Of a stretch of DNA of 64,000 bases, positions 30,545-57,170 are shown in pieces (within the stretch, counting starts at the first letter, position 1; each line of letters opens with the position of its first letter). The stretch is taken from NCBI GenBank assembly GCA_035620735.1, contig DASPGH010000131.1:18218-82217 (forward strand), written 5' to 3'. Position numbers and translations under genes: made by a program. The notes below the pieces were generated by a model. The model did no database searches. It saw only the letters and a list, made by a program, of their open reading frames with translations, and had not been told where the DNA came from. Source of the DNA: Acidimicrobiia bacterium. Lineage in GTDB: Bacteria; Actinomycetota; Acidimicrobiia; Spongiisociales; ZC4RG35.

Positions 30545-31423
30545 GTGATCCCAAACACGATCGAAGAGCTGAAACGCTCTCTCGACAGCCAGGACTACTT
30601 CGCTGGTGACGACCTCACCGTCGCCATCCACCTCGCCCTCCAGCTGGGGAGACCCTTGTTTCTCGAGGGAGAAGCCGGCGTCGGCAAGACCGAGGTAGCG
30701 AAGGTCCTCGCCTCTCTCGCCGGAGAGGAGCTCATCAGACTCCAGTGCTACGAAGGCCTCGACGTGAATCACGCGCTGTACGAGTGGGACTACGCACTGC
30801 AGATGATGGAGATCAGGCTGCTCGAGGCGCGTGGTGAAGGGGAGAGAGCAACCGCGAAGGACATCATGAGCCGTGAGTTCCTCATCGCCAGACCGCTACT
30901 CCAGGCGATCGAGGCGTCCCGCGGCGGACGTCGCCCCGTGCTCCTCATCGACGAGTTGGACAGGGCGGATGAAGAGTTCGAGGCGTTCCTCCTCGAGCTT
31001 CTGTCTGACTTCCAGGTCTCGATCCCCGAGATCGGAACCATCAAGGCGGAAAACCCCCCGATCGTCGTGCTGACCTCGAATCGCACGCGGGAGATCCACG
31101 ACGCGCTCAAGAGACGTTGCATCTACCACTGGATCGACTATCCCACCCCCGACCTCGAGGCATCGATCGTGTCCCGAAAGGTGCCGGGGATCGAAGAGGA
31201 TCTCGCTTCCAGTCTGGCCACCGCCATGGCCAAGCTCCGTCAGATGGAGCTGTTCAAACCACCCGGGGTCGCCGAGACGCTCGATTGGGCCGAGTCCCTT
31301 CAACTGCTACACGACGGGGAGCTCACCCCGACGATGGTCGAGCGCACGCTCGGCGTGGTGTTGAAGTACAAAGACGACATCGACACCGTCAGGGAATCCG
31401 GGCTCGAATCGCTCGTTGGGTGA
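30545..31423 (+). CDS. coxD: MoxR-family AAA+ ATPase, CoxD-like
   Basis: Walker A (GEAGVGKTE), Walker B (LLIDELDRAD) and the MoxR architecture. It heads the cox cluster. Confidence 0.85.
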   Translation: MIPNTIEELKRSLDSQDYFAGDDLTVAIHLALQLGRPLFLEGEAGVGKTEVAKVLASLAGEELIRLQCYEGLDVNHALYEWDYALQMMEIRLLEARGEGERATAKDIMSREFLIARPLLQAIEASRGGRRPVLLIDELDRADEEFEAFLLELLSDFQVSIPEIGTIKAENPPIVVLTSNRTREIHDALKRRCIYHWIDYPTPDLEASIVSRKVPGIEEDLASSLATAMAKLRQMELFKPPGVAETLDWAESLQLLHDGELTPTMVERTLGVVLKYKDDIDTVRESGLESLVG

Positions 31424-33910: not shown

Positions 33911-34483
33911 ATGACGAGCCTGTTCGAAGAGATCACTCCAACGCCATCATCTCTCGACGAAGTCCCTGTGCGCAAGGTCACGATCACTGTCAACGGACAG
34001 CAGCGATCGGCGATGGTCGAGCCCCGTCTTCTGCTCGTTCACCTGCTCCGACAGGGATTCGAGCTCACCGGCACCCACATCGGCTGTGACACGACCAACT
34101 GTGGGGCGTGCACGGTTCTGTTCGACGGCAAGCCGATCAAGAGCTGCACGATGTTGGCCGTTCAGGCCGACGGGCACGAGGTGATGACGGTCGAGGGTCT
34201 CGCCGGCCCCAGCGAGCTGCACGCCATCCAGGAGGGTTTCAAAGAGGAGCACGGCCTCCAGTGCGGTTTCTGCACACCCGGGATGATGATGACCTCCAAG
34301 GCACTTCTCGACGAGAATTCGAACCCGACCGAGGACGAGATCCGCTGGGCCTTGGGCGGGAACCTGTGCCGGTGCACCGGCTACCAGAACATCGTGAAAG
34401 CCGTGATGTGGGCGGCGGCGAAGCTCGACGGCGCCGCCGAGGCCTCGGAAGACGAAGACGACGATGCGGAGGTGACGGCGTGA
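33911..34483 (+). CDS. coxS: CO dehydrogenase small (2x[2Fe-2S]) subunit CoxS
   Basis: Two iron-sulfur motifs ([11 protein letters not shown] and CGFCTPG ... CRCTGY). Confidence 0.95.
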
Positions 34484-36864
34484 CGGCCCTGGACGAGAGA
34501 AAGATCGGTGGTCTGGGCGCGAGTCGTCGCCGGGTCGAGGACAACCGGTTCATCAGGGGCAAGGGCGGTTATCTCGACGACATCACATTGCCCGGGATGC
34601 TGCACATGGAGATACTTCGCAGCCCCGTGGCCCACGCCAAGATCAACTCGATCGACATATCCAAGGCCATGGGCATGCCCGGAGTCAGGCTGGTTCTCAC
34701 CGGTGAGATGATGGCGGCGCGAAACCTGGCCTGGATGCCAACGCTCTCTTACGACACCCAGGCCGTTCTCGCCACCGACAAGGTTCGATTCCAGGGCCAG
34801 GAGGTGGCGTGTGTGATCGCCGATGACCCCTATACCGCCAAGGATGCCTGTCAAGCCATCGTCGTCGACTACGAGCCGTTGCCCGTCATCATCAACCCGG
34901 AACAGGCTCTCGCCGAGGGCGCCTCGTTGATCCGCGACGACAAGGTGAACCAGCCCGACAACGTGATCTACGACTGGGAGGTGGGCGACAAGGAAGGGAC
35001 CGACCGCGCCTTCGCCGAAGCGGATCTCGTCTCGGAGATCGAACTGCACTACCCCCGCTCTCACCCTTCGCCGATCGAGACCTGCGGCTCCATCGCCGAC
35101 TTCAACCGGGCCACCGAGAAGCTGACCGTCTACATGACGACTCAGGCCCCACACATCATCCGAGCCGCCGTGGCCCTCGTGGCCGAGTTGCCCGAGCAGA
35201 TGATCCGGGTGATATCACCGGACATCGGAGGAGGCTTCGGGAACAAGGTGCCCGTCTATCCGGGTTATGTGGTGTCGATCCTCGCCTCGATCCTCCTCGA
35301 ACGCCCCGTGAAGTGGATCGAAGACCGCACCGGGAACCTGATCTCGACAGGCTTCGCCCGAGACATCTACCTGAAGGGCCAGCTGGCCCTGCGTAGCGAC
35401 GGGAAGATCCTCGGGGTCCGCATGAACACCCTCGCCGACCACGGCGCATTCTTCTCAGACGCCCAACCTTCGAAGTTCAAACTCGGTCTGATCCATTCGG
35501 CGTTCGCCTGCTACGACATTCCCAATGCCCATCTGGTGGCAAAGGGGGTCTACACGAACAAAGCCCCCGGCGGAGTCGCCTATCGCTGCTCGTTCCGGGT
35601 GACGGAGGCGATGTTCTTCCAGGAGCGCATGGTCCAAGCCGCCGCCGACGACCTGGGGATGGACCAAGCCGAGTTCCGGCGGAAGAACCTGGTTCGTGAT
35701 GATGACTTCCCCCACCGCACCCCATTCGGGTTTCTCACCGACTCTGGCCAATACGCCAAGTGCCTCGACGTGGGTCTCGAGGCCATCGGCTATCAAGACT
35801 TCCTGAAAGAGAAGGAGAACGCTGCGAAACGGGGGCGCCGTCTCGGGATCGGGATCTCGGTGATGACCGAGCCTCTCGGCGCAGGGAACAGCCGTGAGTA
35901 CGACATCCTGGGCATAAAGATGTTCGACTCCGCCGAGTTGCGGGTGCACATGACCGGCAAGGCGCTGCTTCGAACCGGGGCACGTTCTCAAGGCCAGGGA
36001 CATGAGACCACATGGGCACAGATCGTCTCCCACGAGCTGGGCATCCCCGCAGAGGACGTGATCGTGGAGGAGGGAGACACCGACACCGCACCCTTCGGGA
36101 TGGGCACATACGCCTCTCGCTCAACGCCGGTCGCCGGCGCCGCGGTCGCCATGGTGTCACGCAAGATAAGGGCCAAGGCCCGCAAACTCGCCGCCCACCT
36201 CCTCGAGATCTCCGAGGAGGACGTCGAATGGGAGCTGGGCCGCTTCTATGTGAGGAGCCAGCCCGACCGTGGGGTGACCATCCAGGAGGCAGCCGCCGCG
36301 GCGTACTCCAACATGCCGGATGGGATGGAGCCGGGGCTGGAGAACACGGCCTATTACGACCCCCCCAACCTCACCTGGCCGTTTGCCTGCTACATCGCCA
36401 CCGTAGAGGTCGACCCCGACACGGGTGTCTGGGACGTGCTACGGGTCGTCGCTGTCGACGACTGTGGGGTGCGGATCAACCCGATGATCGTCGAAGGACA
36501 GATCATGGGGGGTCTCACCGAGGCATACGCCATGGCGAACATGCAGTTCATAACCTTCGACGAGGACGGGAACTGCATAGGCTCCAACTTCACCGATTAC
36601 TTGCTGCCCACGGCGTGGGAGACACCCGGATTCGAGCTCCACGAGGTGGTGACACCCTGCCCCCATCATCCGATCGGGGCCAAGGGCATCGGGGAGTGCG
36701 CCGCCGTCGGCGGGCCTGCCGCCTTCGTCAACGCGGTGATGGATGCCCTGAAAGACACCGGAGTCCGCAACATAGACATGCCCGTCTTCCCCGATCGGGT
36801 CCATCAGGCGATCCAGACAGGCGATGATGTGAGCGGGGCTCCACCGGTGAGAGTGGGAGTATGA
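34480..36864 (+). CDS. coxL: Form I CO dehydrogenase large (Mo-Cu MCD) subunit CoxL
   Basis: GTG start overlaps the coxS stop as GTGA. The form I active-site loop VAYRCSFR is present near 35575-35598. The track ORF (34108..) carries a spurious N-terminal extension. Confidence 0.9.
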
Positions 36865-37817
36865 ATCAATCCCCCGGCGACGGATGGCAGATTCTGGAGA
36901 AGGCGAGCCAGCTCGCCGCACAAGGAGTGCAGCTCGCCCTCGCCACAGTGGTGTGGCGCCAGGCCCCCTCTTCGGGGCATCAGGGGGCCCGGGCAATCAT
37001 CACCGCCGACGGGGAGATTCACGGCTGGATCGGCGGTGCTTGCGCCGAACCGGTTGTGATCCGGGAAGGCCAGCGGGTCATCGCCGAAGGCCACCCTCAG
37101 TTGATCCTGCTCGGTGAGCCGGGCGATTTCGGCCATGTGCCGGAAGGGGTGGTGTCGGTTCCGATGGCATGTCAGTCCGAGGGGGCTCTCGAGCTCTATA
37201 TCGAGCCGGTGCTGTCCACCCCTCGAATGCTGGTCGTGGGTCGGTCCCCCATGGCTACCACCCTCGTCGAGCTGGCCACCGTTCTCGGTTGGCGGGCCGA
37301 TCTGATCGATTCGTCTGATTTCAGGGCCGATCTGGTGGATGGGAATTCGATTGTCATCGTGGCCACACAGGGTCACGACGACGAGGACACCCTGGAAACG
37401 GCGGTGGGCGCGAGCCCCGCCTTCATCGGGCTCGTCGCCTCACAGAGAAGGGGCGAGTCGGTCCTGGGATACCTCGCCGACCGTGGAGTGCCCGAGGAGA
37501 AGCTGCAGCGGGTCAGAGTGCCGGTAGGTATCGACCTTGGTCACACCTCCCACACCGAGATAGCGGTCGCCGTCCTCGCCGAGCTCGTGGCTCTCAAGGC
37601 AAAGGGCGAGTTTGGCCCGACCCCACCCGAGAGAACGGCGGCTCCCGCGCCCGAGACCGCGATCGATCTCGTCTGCGGGATGACTGTCACCGCTGACGAG
37701 ACCGGCCGCCCACTCGAGTACGAGGGGACCACTTACTACTTCTGCGCCCCGGGGTGCCGGGCCGCTTTCGAAAAGGAACCCGAGAAGTTCATCAAGGAGA
37801 CCGTCCGTGCTGATTGA
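36861..37817 (+). CDS. coxF: XdhC/CoxF-family maturation protein fused to a C-terminal YHS/TRASH-like metal-binding domain
   Basis: XdhC N- and C-domains (AIITADGEIHGWIGGACAE ... MLVVGRSPMA) followed by a Cys-rich tail (CGMTVTADETGRPLEYEGTTYYFCAPGCRAAFEKEPEKF). It overlaps the coxL stop as ATGA. Confidence 0.8.
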   Translation: MNQSPGDGWQILEKASQLAAQGVQLALATVVWRQAPSSGHQGARAIITADGEIHGWIGGACAEPVVIREGQRVIAEGHPQLILLGEPGDFGHVPEGVVSVPMACQSEGALELYIEPVLSTPRMLVVGRSPMATTLVELATVLGWRADLIDSSDFRADLVDGNSIVIVATQGHDDEDTLETAVGASPAFIGLVASQRRGESVLGYLADRGVPEEKLQRVRVPVGIDLGHTSHTEIAVAVLAELVALKAKGEFGPTPPERTAAPAPETAIDLVCGMTVTADETGRPLEYEGTTYYFCAPGCRAAFEKEPEKFIKETVRAD

Positions 37818-38391
37818 GAGCTCGATTCACGTACCCCACCCCATCGAGGACGTCTGGAAATTCTGCCAGGACGTGCCACAGGTGGCGGCCTGCCTCCCGG
37901 GGGCCGATCTCAACGAGGAGCTCGGGCCCGACCACTATGCGGGCACAGTGGCCATCAACATGGGCCCGGTGCGACTCAAGTTCGCCGGTGAGGCCAAGGT
38001 GTTGGAGCGGGATGAGGAGAACAAGACCATCGTCATCGATGCCGTGGGCATGGACCAGACCGGCGGCGATCGTGCCAGTCTCGACCTGACCGTGAAGCTG
38101 GCTCCACACGGACGAGGGACAAATCTCGACGTCACCCAGGAGATCCATCTCTCGGGAGCGGCGGCACAGTTCGGGAGAGGCATGATCGGTGACGTCACCC
38201 AGGTGCTGATGATCGACTTCGGGAAGAACATGCAGACCCGGCTCGACGCCTTCGAGCGCGGGATTGCAGCCCACGAGATTCAGGGGAGCCAGAGGGCGAG
38301 TGGTCTGGCCATTGGCCTCAGGGCAGCTTGGATGGCCCTGAAGAGGGTGGCAAGGCGCTTCTTCCTCCCCTACGAGCCAAACCGAGTGTGA
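37807..38391 (+). CDS. coxG: CO dehydrogenase subunit G (SRPBCC family) CoxG
   Basis: 194 aa with CoxG-family similarity (SIHVPHPIEDVWKFCQDVPQVAACLPGA). Confidence 0.85.
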   Translation: MLIESSIHVPHPIEDVWKFCQDVPQVAACLPGADLNEELGPDHYAGTVAINMGPVRLKFAGEAKVLERDEENKTIVIDAVGMDQTGGDRASLDLTVKLAPHGRGTNLDVTQEIHLSGAAAQFGRGMIGDVTQVLMIDFGKNMQTRLDAFERGIAAHEIQGSQRASGLAIGLRAAWMALKRVARRFFLPYEPNRV

Positions 38392-39816: not shown

Positions 39817-40266
39817 CTACACCCTTCTCTTCGAGGGGTTGCGGTCCGTGGTCAGGGGGCCGGTGGTCCCAGGGGTCTCATACTCGCCAATCCAGTGGTC
39901 TTTCCAGGACTGGTCGTACTGCTCGGGATTGCAGCCCGGCTCGTAGATCGCGATCAGCTCCCGCATGATCTGCTCCCGATGTGACGCCAGCGCTCCCGGA
40001 GCTTCCAGGTAGCAGATGTGAAGTTTGAACCTGTCGCCCTCGACGCGCTTGAGCCAACAACCGGCCGCAGGGTGATTGAACGGAAAGTGCTCCCGGGACA
40101 GGTCATCGGAATGACCCACGTACAGAACACCATATCGCTCCGGGTTGGTGTCCGGCTTCGGCCTGTACAGGATGGCATAGACGGCGGGACGACTCGGTGG
40201 CGTGAAGCCGGCGAGCAGCCGAGGCCCCTCGAAGGCATACCCGGCGAGAGTGCCGAGACGGATCAA
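39817..40266 (-). CDS. Hypothetical 149-aa protein with a GIY-YIG-like nuclease motif
   Basis: VYAILY, then 11 residues, then YVGHSDDLSREHF, then about 35 residues, then REQIMRELIAIYEPGCN. This resembles the GIY ... YIG ... R ... H ... E ... N pattern of UvrC and I-TevI. It is the last gene of the operon and overlaps the preceding gene by 4 nt. Confidence 0.45.
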   Translation of the reverse strand: MIRLGTLAGYAFEGPRLLAGFTPPSRPAVYAILYRPKPDTNPERYGVLYVGHSDDLSREHFPFNHPAAGCWLKRVEGDRFKLHICYLEAPGALASHREQIMRELIAIYEPGCNPEQYDQSWKDHWIGEYETPGTTGPLTTDRNPSKRRV

Positions 40267-40592
40267 TCTTCTCCCTCTCCTCGATCCCGACTGCGGCCCT
40301 CCGGGATCTGGTTATACCAGTCCAAGCTCTCCTCATGACCTTCGGTCTCGACACTCATCACCGGCCAATCGGGAAGACCTGCTGCAGCAGCCGCGGATGT
40401 GAACAAGGCCATGGCACGCTCCACCGCCAATTCGCTCGTCCCGGCCTCGACCACGATCTGGGCCCCATACGAGTTGGTCCCCATTCCCGTGGCCACTCCC
40501 TCTTGGGGGGCGACGGCATCGGCCAGCTCGACCACTTCCTCCAGGCGAATCTCACGATCACCCTCGGCCTGGAGGGCCACGATCCACCTCAT
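40263..40592 (-). CDS. Hypothetical 109-aa acidic protein
   Basis: GC3-rich and translationally coupled (4-nt overlaps) to the VWA gene upstream and the GIY-YIG-like gene downstream. I recognise no family. Confidence 0.5.
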   Translation of the reverse strand: MRWIVALQAEGDREIRLEEVVELADAVAPQEGVATGMGTNSYGAQIVVEAGTSELAVERAMALFTSAAAAAGLPDWPVMSVETEGHEESLDWYNQIPEGRSRDRGEGED

Positions 40593-41752
40593 CGCAGCGC
40601 TGGGAGTTGGTGAGCGAGCTCTTCGAGACCGGCCAGATCGCGGCCCGACATGAAGAGATCGATGTGAGGCTTGGCAACCATCATGCCCAACGTGGCGGGC
40701 CGGTAGCTGCCCTCATCACCGATGTGGGGGTTTACCCATACCACCCTGTGAGAGAGGAGAGACAGCCGCTCCATGGCCTTCGCGAGGACGGCCGGATCGC
40801 CCCGGTCGAGCCCATCGGAGCAAATGACGACGATGGCGCCGCGGCTCATCCCACGTCGACCCCATTGCTTCACGAAAGTCGCGATGGAATCGCCTATCCG
40901 TGTGCCTCCCTCCCAGTCGAAGACCATCTTGGCGGCGCGGTCGAGCGCCTCGTCGGGACGGCGGCGCTCCAGGGACGGAGTGATCCGGGTGAGACGGGTC
41001 CCGAAGCAGAAGACCTCGACTCTGGCGCTGGCCCGTCGTGCCGAGTAGGCGAACTGGAGAAGGTTGCGCGAGTACTCCGCCATCGAGCCCGAGACGTCGA
41101 GGATCAGCACCAACGGGCGCGACTTTCTCTTTCGCGCACGCCAGAACAACTGGGATGGCTCCCCGTGCTGGCGCATCGTGGCGCGCACGGTGCGACGAAG
41201 ATCAGGACGGCTCTTCGAACGGGAAGGCCGGGTCCGACGGGTGCGACGCCGCGGCGGGATGAGCCTCATCCGATTCATGATCCTTCGAAGCGCCGCCAGC
41301 TCCTCCTCGGTGCATGCCGGGAAAGACTTGTCACGCCAGATCTCGATGTCCGATGCGTTCAAGCCGAGCCTGGCTTCCTCCTCGTCATGGCCTGGTTTAC
41401 CCGGTTCGGTCGCCGGTATCTCGATAACGGCATCGTTCTCGATCTGGGAGCGTTTCAGCTCCCGACGCAACGACTCGGGGATGGCAGGGTCGTAGCCGAG
41501 GAAGAATCGGCGAAATACCCTGTCATATATCGGGATCTGATCGTGCTTGGTGATGAGCGTGGAGCGTCCGGCCCAGTAGAGGTCGAGAAGATCGCCAGGG
41601 TTGAGAGTGGCCATGGCCGCGCAGTAGATGAGCAACTCCCCCGAGCCCACCGGCATGCCCTCGGCGCGAAGCTCCCTACCGAAGCTCACGATCATCTCGA
41701 CGAATGGGCCTCCCTGTGCCAGCTCCGCGTCGATCGGCGATCCATCAGCCAT
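40589..41752 (-). CDS. VWA-domain protein, CoxE-like (second copy)
   Basis: MIDAS motif (DVSGSM ... SDGLD) and a CoxE-type N-terminus. The start is probably an ATG at 41752, which would overlap the MoxR stop as ATGGCTGA. The track ORF extends to 41860. Confidence 0.8.
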   Translation of the reverse strand: MADGSPIDAELAQGGPFVEMIVSFGRELRAEGMPVGSGELLIYCAAMATLNPGDLLDLYWAGRSTLITKHDQIPIYDRVFRRFFLGYDPAIPESLRRELKRSQIENDAVIEIPATEPGKPGHDEEEARLGLNASDIEIWRDKSFPACTEEELAALRRIMNRMRLIPPRRRTRRTRPSRSKSRPDLRRTVRATMRQHGEPSQLFWRARKRKSRPLVLILDVSGSMAEYSRNLLQFAYSARRASARVEVFCFGTRLTRITPSLERRRPDEALDRAAKMVFDWEGGTRIGDSIATFVKQWGRRGMSRGAIVVICSDGLDRGDPAVLAKAMERLSLLSHRVVWVNPHIGDEGSYRPATLGMMVAKPHIDLFMSGRDLAGLEELAHQLPALR

Positions 41753-42524
41753 CGGGCACGAGCTCTTCGAGGTGTTCGAGCACGGCTTCGAGATCGTCCC
41801 GCTCCTTGACCACGGCACCCAAGGTGTCCCGAACGGTCTCGCCGTCCAGTTCCGGCTCACCCAGGACCTCGAGGGTCGCCACCCAGTCCAGGGTCTCTGC
41901 GACTCCAGGGGGCTTCGCCAGATCCATCCCGCGAAGACGGTTGACGGCTGCTACCACCTTGCGGGCGATGGTCTCGGTGGCTCCCGGGTTGCGGGCGAGC
42001 ACGATGTCGACCTCACGCATCGGGTCCGGATAGGGCACCCAGTGGTAGAGACACCGGCGCTTGAGTGCATCGTGCAGCTCGCGGGTCCGGTTGGAGGTGA
42101 GCACCACTATGGGTGGCGCGTTTGCGGAGATGGTCCCGATCTCGGGGATGGTTATCTGAAAGTCCGACAGCAGCTCCAGGAGGAAAGCCTCGAACTCGTC
42201 GTCGGCTCGATCGATCTCATCGATCAACAAGACTGCGCTGTCTCCGGCCCGAACCGCGGCGAGCAGCGGGCGCTCCAGCAAGAACTTGGGACCGAAGAGT
42301 TGGTCGACTTGGTCATCGTCGGCGAGTTGCTGCTCCGAGAGCGCCCGAATCTGCAGCATCTGCCTGGCATAGTCCCACTCGTAGAGCGCCTGGTTGGTGT
42401 CGATTCCCTCATAGCACTGCAGACGGATCAGCTGTTTGCCGAACACCTCGGCCAGGGCTTTGGCCAACTCCGTCTTGCCCACACCCACTTCACCCTCGAG
42501 GAGGAGGGGTCGGCCCAGGCTCAT
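41745..42524 (-). CDS. MoxR-family AAA+ ATPase, CoxD-like (second copy)
   Basis: Walker A (GEVGVGKTE) and Walker B (LLIDEIDRAD). The first canonical start is at 42524. Another 39 in-frame codons upstream (to 42641), homologous to the coxD N-terminus, contain no ATG/GTG/TTG and end at a TAG. Confidence 0.8.
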   Translation of the reverse strand: MSLGRPLLLEGEVGVGKTELAKALAEVFGKQLIRLQCYEGIDTNQALYEWDYARQMLQIRALSEQQLADDDQVDQLFGPKFLLERPLLAAVRAGDSAVLLIDEIDRADDEFEAFLLELLSDFQITIPEIGTISANAPPIVVLTSNRTRELHDALKRRCLYHWVPYPDPMREVDIVLARNPGATETIARKVVAAVNRLRGMDLAKPPGVAETLDWVATLEVLGEPELDGETVRDTLGAVVKERDDLEAVLEHLEELVPDG

Positions 42525-42641
42525 GGCGACGAAGACGGCAGTGGCAAGGCCGCGATCTGCCAGGTAGTCGCCACCGCGGAGCAGTTGAGTCAGTTCGGCG
42601 ACATCCGAAGGCGCCGCCGGGGAACCGGGTGCGGGGCTCAG

Positions 42642-42893
42642 CTACCCACCCTCGCCGAGAACGAGGTCACGAATCGTCCCGGCGGACTTGTCGAGCTTCC
42701 CCTCGCGCGCCAATTGGGCCCGCCAGGCAGCGCCGATGTCGGTGCCGGGCTCGGCGTAACCGTCGAAGCTCACACCCTTCATGTTGCGGCATGGTTTGGT
42801 TGGACTGCAATCCTCGTCGAGCTCGTAGTGGTCATGATTGACCAGCCACACCGATTGCAGCACGTCGGCCGTGGTCTCGTCTCGGGCAGTCAT
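42642..42893 (-). CDS. Hypothetical 83-aa protein
   Basis: Strong RBS (AGGAGGAG 6 nt before the ATG) and GC3-rich usage. Its TAG stop is in frame with the MoxR-like gene. I recognise no family. Confidence 0.55.
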   Translation of the reverse strand: MTARDETTADVLQSVWLVNHDHYELDEDCSPTKPCRNMKGVSFDGYAEPGTDIGAAWRAQLAREGKLDKSAGTIRDLVLGEGG

Positions 42894-42969
42894 CGCGAGC
42901 TCCTCCTGGGAATCAGCTGAAGACCACCAAGTCTAGTGACAGCCGACCCCTTGCCACCACGAACTCGAC

Positions 42970-56035: not shown

Positions 56036-56165
56036 ACGACCATCAGGGCCCAGGATGATGGGAAATGAAATGTCGACTGTGATACTGCTTACGCATGCTG
56101 TCGGTTTGGCGGGTCACATCCTCCCCCAGACTTGACCGAATCGCCCTGATCACACGACACTTGTA

Positions 56166-57170
56166 CCGATCAGGCACTTCCTCAACACGTTCGACTGGTC
56201 ACTTCCCGAGCTACAGGCTCTGCTCGAGGACGCCCGCTCCTTCAAGACCGCCCCTCACTCGAGAGATCTCGAAGGAAAGACGGTCGCTCTTCTCTTTCTG
56301 AACAACTCACTGCGGACGAGGACATCGTTCGAAGTCGGCGCCTACCACATGGGCGGTCACGCCGTGGTTCTCACCCCTTCGGGCGGCATGTGGCCATTGG
56401 AGTTCGAGAAGGGTGCGGTCATGATGGGTGATGCCGAGGAGCACGCTCAGGAGGCGGCAAAGGTCCTCTCCCGCTACTGCGATCTCATCGGCATCCGGGC
56501 ATTCCCCAAGTTCGAGAACTGGGAAGAAGACCGCAAGGACCTCATCCTCAACGCCTTCGCCGAGCACGCCGAGGTACCCGTCATCAACATGGAGACCATC
56601 ACCCACCCCTGTCAGGAGATGGCTATGACCATGGCACTGCAGGATCACGTCGGTGATCTCGAGGGCAAGAAGTTCCTCCTCACCTGGAGCTATCACCCCA
56701 AGCCCCTCAACACGGCTGTGGCCAACTCGGCTCTGGTGGCTGCGGCCAAGTTCGGGATGGACGTGACCCTGCTCTGCCCCACGGACGAGTACCTGCTCGA
56801 CCAGCGCTATCTCGACATCGCCGAGTCGGACGCCGGGACCAACGGCCAGGAGCTCAGCATCACTCACGACATCGACGAGGCCTACGCCGATGCGGACATC
56901 GTCTACGCCAAGAGCTGGGGTGCCCTCCCCTACTTCGGCCGATGGGCCGACGAGAAACCGGTGCGCGACCGCTTCAAGCATTTCATCGTCGACGAATCGA
57001 AAATGGCCAAGACCAACGGGGCAGTGGTCAGCCATTGCCTCCCCATGCGACGCAATGTGATCATGACCGACGGTGTCTTCGACAGCCCTGCCTGCATCGC
57101 CTACGACGAGGCCGAGAACCGGCTACACGTGCAGAAGGCGATAATGAAGACCCTCGCCACCGGTAGCTAG
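56166..57170 (+). CDS. argF': N-acetylornithine carbamoyltransferase-like transcarbamylase (ArgF' type)
   Basis: Carbamoyl-phosphate site (SLRTRTSFE), HCLP motif and strong resemblance to Xanthomonas-type AOTCase (HFIVDESKMAKTNGAVVSHCLPMRRNV ... DEAENRLHVQKAIM). The first ATG is at 56349. The conserved N-terminus (RHFLNTFDWS ...) lies upstream and is not preceded by a canonical start. Confidence 0.8.
   Translation, partial: PIRHFLNTFDWSLPELQALLEDARSFKTAPHSRDLEGKTVALLFLNNSLRTRTSFEVGAYHMGGHAVVLTPSGGMWPLEFEKGAVMMGDAEEHAQEAAKVLSRYCDLIGIRAFPKFENWEEDRKDLILNAFAEHAEVPVINMETITHPCQEMAMTMALQDHVGDLEGKKFLLTWSYHPKPLNTAVANSALVAAAKFGMDVTLLCPTDEYLLDQRYLDIAESDAGTNGQELSITHDIDEAYADADIVYAKSWGALPYFGRWADEKPVRDRFKHFIVDESKMAKTNGAVVSHCLPMRRNVIMTDGVFDSPACIAYDEAENRLHVQKAIMKTLATGS

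Follow-up and report, generated by a model that had tools for sequence, protein, structure and literature searches.

A MoxR-like AAA+ ATPase gene in the 64-kb stretch of DNA analysed here (the window) probably begins at a CTG codon (42641-42639) that lies directly after the TAG stop of an 83-aa gene, which gives the ATPase a length of 298 aa. We infer that CUG is the initiating codon and that initiation is contingent on termination of the small gene. The features at the junction are as follows:

42901..42907, minus strand: AGGAGGA Shine-Dalgarno motif, 7 nt 5′ of the small gene's ATG, by direct reading
42642..42893, minus strand: 83-aa small gene, from the ORF list, with start ATG at 42893-42891 and stop TAG at 42644-42642
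42650..42653, minus strand: GAGG, Shine-Dalgarno-like, at −12 to −9 from the CTG and inside the small gene's last codons
42636..42644, minus strand: junction TAG CTG AGC, comprising the small-gene stop, the proposed CTG start (42641-42639) and the Ser2 codon
42525..42641, minus strand: 39 codons missed by gene finders, including a variable tail (codons 3-10) and a conserved N-terminus (codons 11-39)
42522..42524, minus strand: ATG of Met40, read here as a conserved internal methionine and not as the start, within predicted helix 30-42
42471..42494, minus strand: Walker A GEVGVGKT, residues 50-57, from the translation; its columns are invariant
41745..42641, minus strand: proposed full ATPase CDS, CoxD-like MoxR AAA+, 298 aa, with stop TGA at 41747-41745

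The codons 42641..42525 (minus strand) translate to LSPAPGSPAAPSDVAELTQLLRGGDYLADRGLATAVFVA. ATG, GTG and TTG are all absent in frame from these 39 codons, as the first-pass annotation had stated for the interval between the TAG of the 83-aa ORF and the first ATG. It had also pointed to the CTG directly after the TAG. The CTG does adjoin the TAG, with a spacing of 0 nt between the co-directional genes, and three more in-frame CTGs, which it had not mentioned, are present at codons 17, 20 and 27, each of which encodes a conserved leucine. The first ATG encodes Met40 and, as had been noted, is 10 residues ahead of the Walker A motif.

To determine whether the 39 codons are translated, substitutions in the window lineage were scored against L093, L177 and L180. 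Across codons 11-39, dN/dS was 0.04-0.16 with pS of 0.46-0.65, and codons 3-10 were far less constrained. For codons 40-60, dN/dS was 0.01-0.15. Judged by these substitution patterns, codons 11-39 are under purifying selection and hence translated, in agreement with the initial view of the segment as coding and conserved. Variation between lineages in codons 11-16 (P-S-D/S-V-A-E) is mostly synonymous, with one amino-acid change, and this constraint means that the start must be 5′ of codon 11. The resemblance to the CoxD N-terminus was also reproduced: in a BLASTP alignment, residues 11-295 of the CTG-extended ATPase matched residues 3-291 of the CoxD-like paralogue elsewhere in the window (56% identity, E 6e-113), with the N-terminal part ungapped. 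The positions that never vary among 32 full-length orthologues include V14, L17, T18, L21, Y26, L27, R30, G31, L32, T34 and A39; M40, an internal residue, is near-invariant.

An AlphaFold2 model of the ATPase (pTM 0.76; pLDDT 78-92 at residues 11-40) has helices at 14-23 and 30-42 preceding the strand at 46-50 and Walker A. Alignments of the AAA domain to solved midasin structures start at residues 32-36. According to the model, a start at Met40 would delete the first of these helices whole and the second for the most part. The earlier suggestion that an ATG start would cripple the ATPase is thus supported by both selection and the structure model, but two helices would be lost, not the one that had been named.

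These data bear on the idea that translation starts downstream of the CTG and yields a shortened ATPase, either from the Leu17 codon (CTG; TTG in L177) or from the ATG of Met40. Codon 17 is a canonical TTG in L177, where the NCBI call is 282 aa, and the ATG at 42524 is the first canonical start in the window gene and is chosen by every gene finder; the public record P0008 has the ATPase called as 42524..41745 only, 259 aa. Nonetheless, we consider a downstream start quite improbable. Purifying selection acts on codons 11-16, and on codons 11-39 as a whole, in lineages that lack a canonical start there; V14, L17, T18 and L21 never vary, and in full-length orthologues M40 is a near-invariant internal residue; Met40 is inside predicted helix 30-42, so that a start there would sacrifice the helices described above; and the midasin AAA_5 alignments begin already at residues 32-36.

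We then asked how widely the junction is conserved. TAG CTG AGC was kept in 8/8 same-species contigs, each from a separate SRA run, and SNPs between them define at least three haplotypes. It recurred in frame in seven other lineages that likewise lack a canonical start (L093-L096; L001, a GTDB species representative; L177 with L180-L184; L178; L186-L187; L188; and L190-L191). The ATPases of these lineages are 84-92% identical to the window ATPase, where measured. The close lineages were obtained via exact-protein look-ups; a metagenome scan gave at least 600 rows, and the relatives among the matches listed were all ≤80% identical. Where small-protein homologues were picked by similarity rank alone, the junction was TAG CTG AGC in 3/4. 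In a neighbour-joining tree, the TAG-CTG lineages fall in one Acidimicrobiia subclade, with the canonical-start lineages L089 and L179 nested inside.

The recurrence of TAG CTG AGC in eight independent SRA assemblies that differ by SNPs, and in seven further lineages, rejects the sequencing error that had been raised as one explanation. It also weighs against the more general proposal that the gene, having lost its start, is in decay, or that the stop is an artefact of assembly or sequencing. Decay would fit with the absence of a canonical start, and the CoxD-like paralogue at 30545..31423 could in principle compensate. However, dN/dS is low through the N-terminus and beyond, none of the junction lineages has a frameshift or internal stop in the ATPase gene, and an indel in L178 keeps the frame. 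We therefore regard decay or artefact as very improbable.

The L178 indel (L178:610-740) is an in-frame insertion of about 12 codons (36 nt), or 16 codons by another count, in the variable tail after CTG AGC. It places the Tyr of YLADRG at codon 38 rather than 26, and in the same lineage SDVAELT has diverged to NDVIQLM, creating an ATG. In L089 (300-400), the TAG is followed by CTG, a 35-nt out-of-frame spacer and a canonical GTG AGT GAC start; in L189 (640-700), the TAG is kept and a 36-nt in-frame spacer precedes a canonical GTG AGT GAC start. The spacers in L089 and L189 indicate that the junction has been remodelled more than once by indels.

The CTG is identified as the start by comparison with relatives that have a canonical start. 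These begin with GTG AGC, GTG AGT or TTG AGT (Met-Ser), 9-10 codons before PSDV; full-length relatives have Met-Ser with a third residue that is usually Asp. At the homologous position, L002, L003, L004, L006, L089, L179 and L189 have a GTG or TTG and then AGC or AGT, and CTG AGC is most simply the same start in near-cognate form. The CTG is the sole near-cognate codon 5′ of codon 11 that is common to all eight TAG-CTG lineages, and the 298 aa of a CTG-started ATPase is the family length (orthologues, 289-302 aa). The GAGG at −12 to −9 is kept in 8/8 of these lineages. For six of them its pairing with the 16S rRNA tail was scored, and the predicted energies are −6.5 to −10.1 kcal/mol.

The CTG and AGC codons are nucleotide-invariant in 8/8 TAG-CTG lineages, which are kin, so that neither this count nor the others of eight represents independent events; the next ~8 codons are hypervariable. 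Across the same eight lineages, only 4/44 amino-acid-invariant codons with at least four-fold degeneracy were nucleotide-invariant, and 3/16 of those with six-fold degeneracy. Set against these degenerate codons, the nucleotide invariance of CTG AGC is suggestive of constraint.

The same invariance could equally reflect a readthrough context, as the TAG and the six bases that follow it are unchanged in the eight lineages. If the UAG were read by a near-cognate or suppressor tRNA, a small protein-ATPase fusion of ~382 aa would be the active species, with most ribosomes releasing the free small protein. An in-frame stop that precedes conserved coding sequence would be expected, although an independent start explains this equally well, and the in-frame insertion in L178 preserves the frame. 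The first-pass annotation had pointed to a TAG followed by C as a readthrough context, and the base after the TAG is indeed C. In work with E. coli, C after the stop is the weakest termination context.

No genuine small protein-ATPase fusion was found in ~190 loci, among the 120 best homologues of the small protein, or among the best 150 of 186 cluster representatives, and none of the ~190 related loci had a sense codon in place of the small-gene stop. A profile searched against 1.84 billion cluster representatives had matched these 186, and the listing gave the best 150; the inspection of long matches covered all but P0366 (1358 aa, with a seven-stretch match). Several candidates were discarded. 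P0338, P0293 and P0306 have alternating in-frame and out-of-frame ATPase stretches and are indel artefacts; P0374, a 708-aa repeat protein, had no likeness to the family on inspection; and P0001 (402 aa) has an internal ATPase duplication of ~100 residues that is probably an assembly artefact. The 120 best database homologues of the small protein are 82-96 aa and all free-standing, and the gene ends in ...LVLGExx* in all relatives. On these comparative grounds, the small gene stands by itself and has the TAG as its ancestral stop, which contradicts the suggestion that a recent nonsense mutation had split a fused gene.

Other observations also disfavour readthrough. In most relatives the two genes differ in frame or have a spacer between them, so a covalent link is not needed for function. 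The conservation of Ser2 (AGC) beside a hypervariable tail is expected of an N-terminus and not of a linker. RNAalifold gave no support for a structure at the junction in six lineages (covariation term +0.53; compensated pairs 2/34), and thus no covariation-supported RNA structure was found after the TAG. The TAG is an ordinary stop that ends 11/48 crude gene calls in the window, a count on which stop-codon reassignment was rejected, and no tRNA genes, including any with a CUA anticodon, were found within the 64-kb window. Taken with the fusion search, this makes readthrough unlikely. Equally doubtful, if not a little more so, is a version in which UAG CUG AGC is a chromosomal readthrough site that sets the ratio of free 83-aa protein and fusion, either alone or together with CUG re-initiation. 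Were readthrough true, this operon for metal-cofactor chaperones would contain a junction with two outputs. The Q-beta A1 protein and eukaryotic viral and cellular readthrough cases share with this junction an in-frame stop, conserved coding sequence after it and a conserved stop context. They differ in that the window junction has no orthologues with a fusion or a sense codon, in that a search for structure downstream of it found none, and in that its post-stop region matches an independent gene start in relatives. The four explanations that had been offered without ranking can thus be ordered: CTG initiation is the best supported, readthrough less so, and the sequencing error and nonsense split are rejected.

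CTG initiation has precedents. CUG is among the start codons of translation table 11, CUG starts are known but rare, and E. coli infC and pcnB initiate at AUU. As in genes of the infC and pcnB type, the window ATPase has a near-cognate codon at the canonical start position of its orthologues and a Shine-Dalgarno-like motif at a suitable spacing, with low efficiency expected. The difference from infC (IF3) is that no autoregulatory logic is evident at the CTG junction, and the CTG start is a putative one.

Many distant relatives have an ATG or GTG 0-1 codon after the small-gene stop (TGA ATG, TAG CGG ATG, TAG TCC GTG), so tight stop-start coupling is normal for the small gene-ATPase pair. The zero stop-to-start spacing in the window suggests termination-reinitiation coupling. 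In such a scheme, ribosomes would load at the strong AGGAGGA and ATG site of the small gene and translate as far as the UAG, where they terminate. Some of the terminating ribosomes would then re-initiate with initiator tRNA on the adjoining CUG, and fresh 30S subunits could possibly initiate there too; the GAGG, 8 nt 5′ of the CUG, would help re-initiation and fresh initiation alike. The weak CUG would produce a low, fixed ratio of ATPase to small protein. CUG initiation in E. coli is ~1-2% of that at AUG (bioRxiv 10.1101/063800), and, given that CUG is a poor start in this model organism, ATPase output might be very low.

Termination-reinitiation at very short or overlapping stop-start distances is established (PMC6728339, PMC12548453). 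The known pairs (ATGA, TGATG, TAAATG; Huber et al. 2019, PMC6728339; PMC12548453) resemble the window junction in its 0-nt spacing, co-directional genes and a Shine-Dalgarno that falls within the upstream gene. Elsewhere in the window operon, overlaps of −8 and −4 nt also fit this pattern, as do the relatives with TGA ATG or TAG NNN ATG/GTG. The window junction differs in that the restart codon is CUG instead of AUG, GUG or UUG, and its coupling is a proposed one. A search of the literature on CTG starts in Actinobacteria and on programmed UAG readthrough in bacteria found nothing directly comparable. A lineage-conserved CUG start abutting a stop would be a new, well-documented case of a known kind and not a new mechanism. 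It raises the questions of whether re-initiating ribosomes tolerate weak starts, and whether weak starts set subunit ratios in coupled operons.

The ATPase matches Pfam AAA_5 (PF07728) over residues 45-197 with 53.4 bits (cut-off 22), and both Walker A (GEVGVGKT, 50-57) and Walker B (VLLIDEID, 137-144) are invariant among the 32 orthologues. Against NCBIfam NF047784 (MadB_ATPase) it scored 283 bits, below the cut-off of 475, and it is thus related but not an equivalog member. Positions 3-297 of this 298-position profile were aligned, the first of them to residue 13 of the CTG-extended ATPase. Downstream of the ATPase in the operon are:

40589..41752, minus strand: VWA/CoxE-like gene, 387 aa, Pfam VWA_CoxE 188.6 bits
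39817..40592, minus strand: two small genes, 109 aa and 149 aa, from ORFs and gene calls

Between the ATPase stop and the ATG of the VWA_CoxE gene there is an 8-nt overlap (ATGGCTGA), and overlaps of 4 nt follow between the VWA and 109-aa genes (ATGA) and between the 109-aa and 149-aa genes (TTGA). The operon at 39817-42893 (minus strand) is therefore a tightly coupled chain with spacings of 0, −8, −4 and −4 nt. An XdhC-like gene lies upstream of the small gene-ATPase-VWA set.

The layout resembles the CoxD/CoxE-type pairs of MoxR and VWA proteins (NorQ/NorD, CbbQ/CbbO, RavA/ViaA; PMC9976466, PMC13036017), in which a VWA_CoxE gene comes after an AAA_5 ATPase that has both Walker motifs, A and B. 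XdhC-like genes adjoin, and there is a CoxD-like paralogue in the window. The window pair differs in having its own conserved 83-aa upstream partner and in falling below the MadB cut-off. The paralogue, a second CoxD-like ATPase at 30545..31423 (plus strand), has a normal GTG start and is 56% identical; its presence means that the window holds two MoxR chaperone sets. Its neighbours are a large-subunit-sized ORF (34108..36864), an XdhC/YHS gene (36861..37817) and a 194-aa ORF (37807..38391).

The 83-aa protein has no match to a Pfam or NCBIfam family. A homologue of its gene is directly 5′ of the ATPase in 86/96 loci, and in nearly all metagenome loci. Invariant residues of the protein include H20, H22, D26, E27, C29 and C35, which are spanned by the motif HDHxxLDEDCSPTKPCRNM. 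This motif may bind metal, a role that would suit an operon for cofactor insertion. The AlphaFold2 model of the small protein was poor (mean pLDDT 52) and unfit for a fold search.

The public ATPase records for the TAG-CTG lineages, whose lengths vary by lineage (259, 258, 282 or 281 aa), are truncated and missing the two N-terminal helices, and any structural or functional inference drawn from them would be wrong.

Two more distant loci, L098 (930-1000; 78% identical) and L015 (3950-4040; 75%), also have no obvious canonical ATPase start, and in both a CTG overlaps the small-gene TGA (CTGA), out of frame. The CTG of L098 occupies the −6 position, at which relatives carry ATG. We did not accept these loci as independent proof of CTG starts, as CTGA is the background at 82/92 TGA stops in the family, and the CTG start in L098 was further downgraded by an alternative GTG 27 codons 5′ of it. 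L015 appears from its name to come from a long-read MAG series, and could then carry indel errors.

A second gene without a canonical start is present in the window, encoding an N-acetylornithine carbamoyltransferase (56136-57170, plus strand). It matches NCBIfam NF003384 with 535.8 bits (cut-off 288), and the profile aligns from residue 12 after an in-frame TGA at 56133-56135. ATG, GTG and TTG are absent from the 71 codons that precede the ATG at 56349, and ahead of the conserved part the near-cognate codons are limited to ACG (56154) and ATC (56169). We count this second gene in favour of the CTG start of the ATPase, and its presence means that non-canonical starts may be under-counted in this uncultured Acidimicrobiia group. 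The same region in the independent assembly L185 is identical, bar one downstream SNP.
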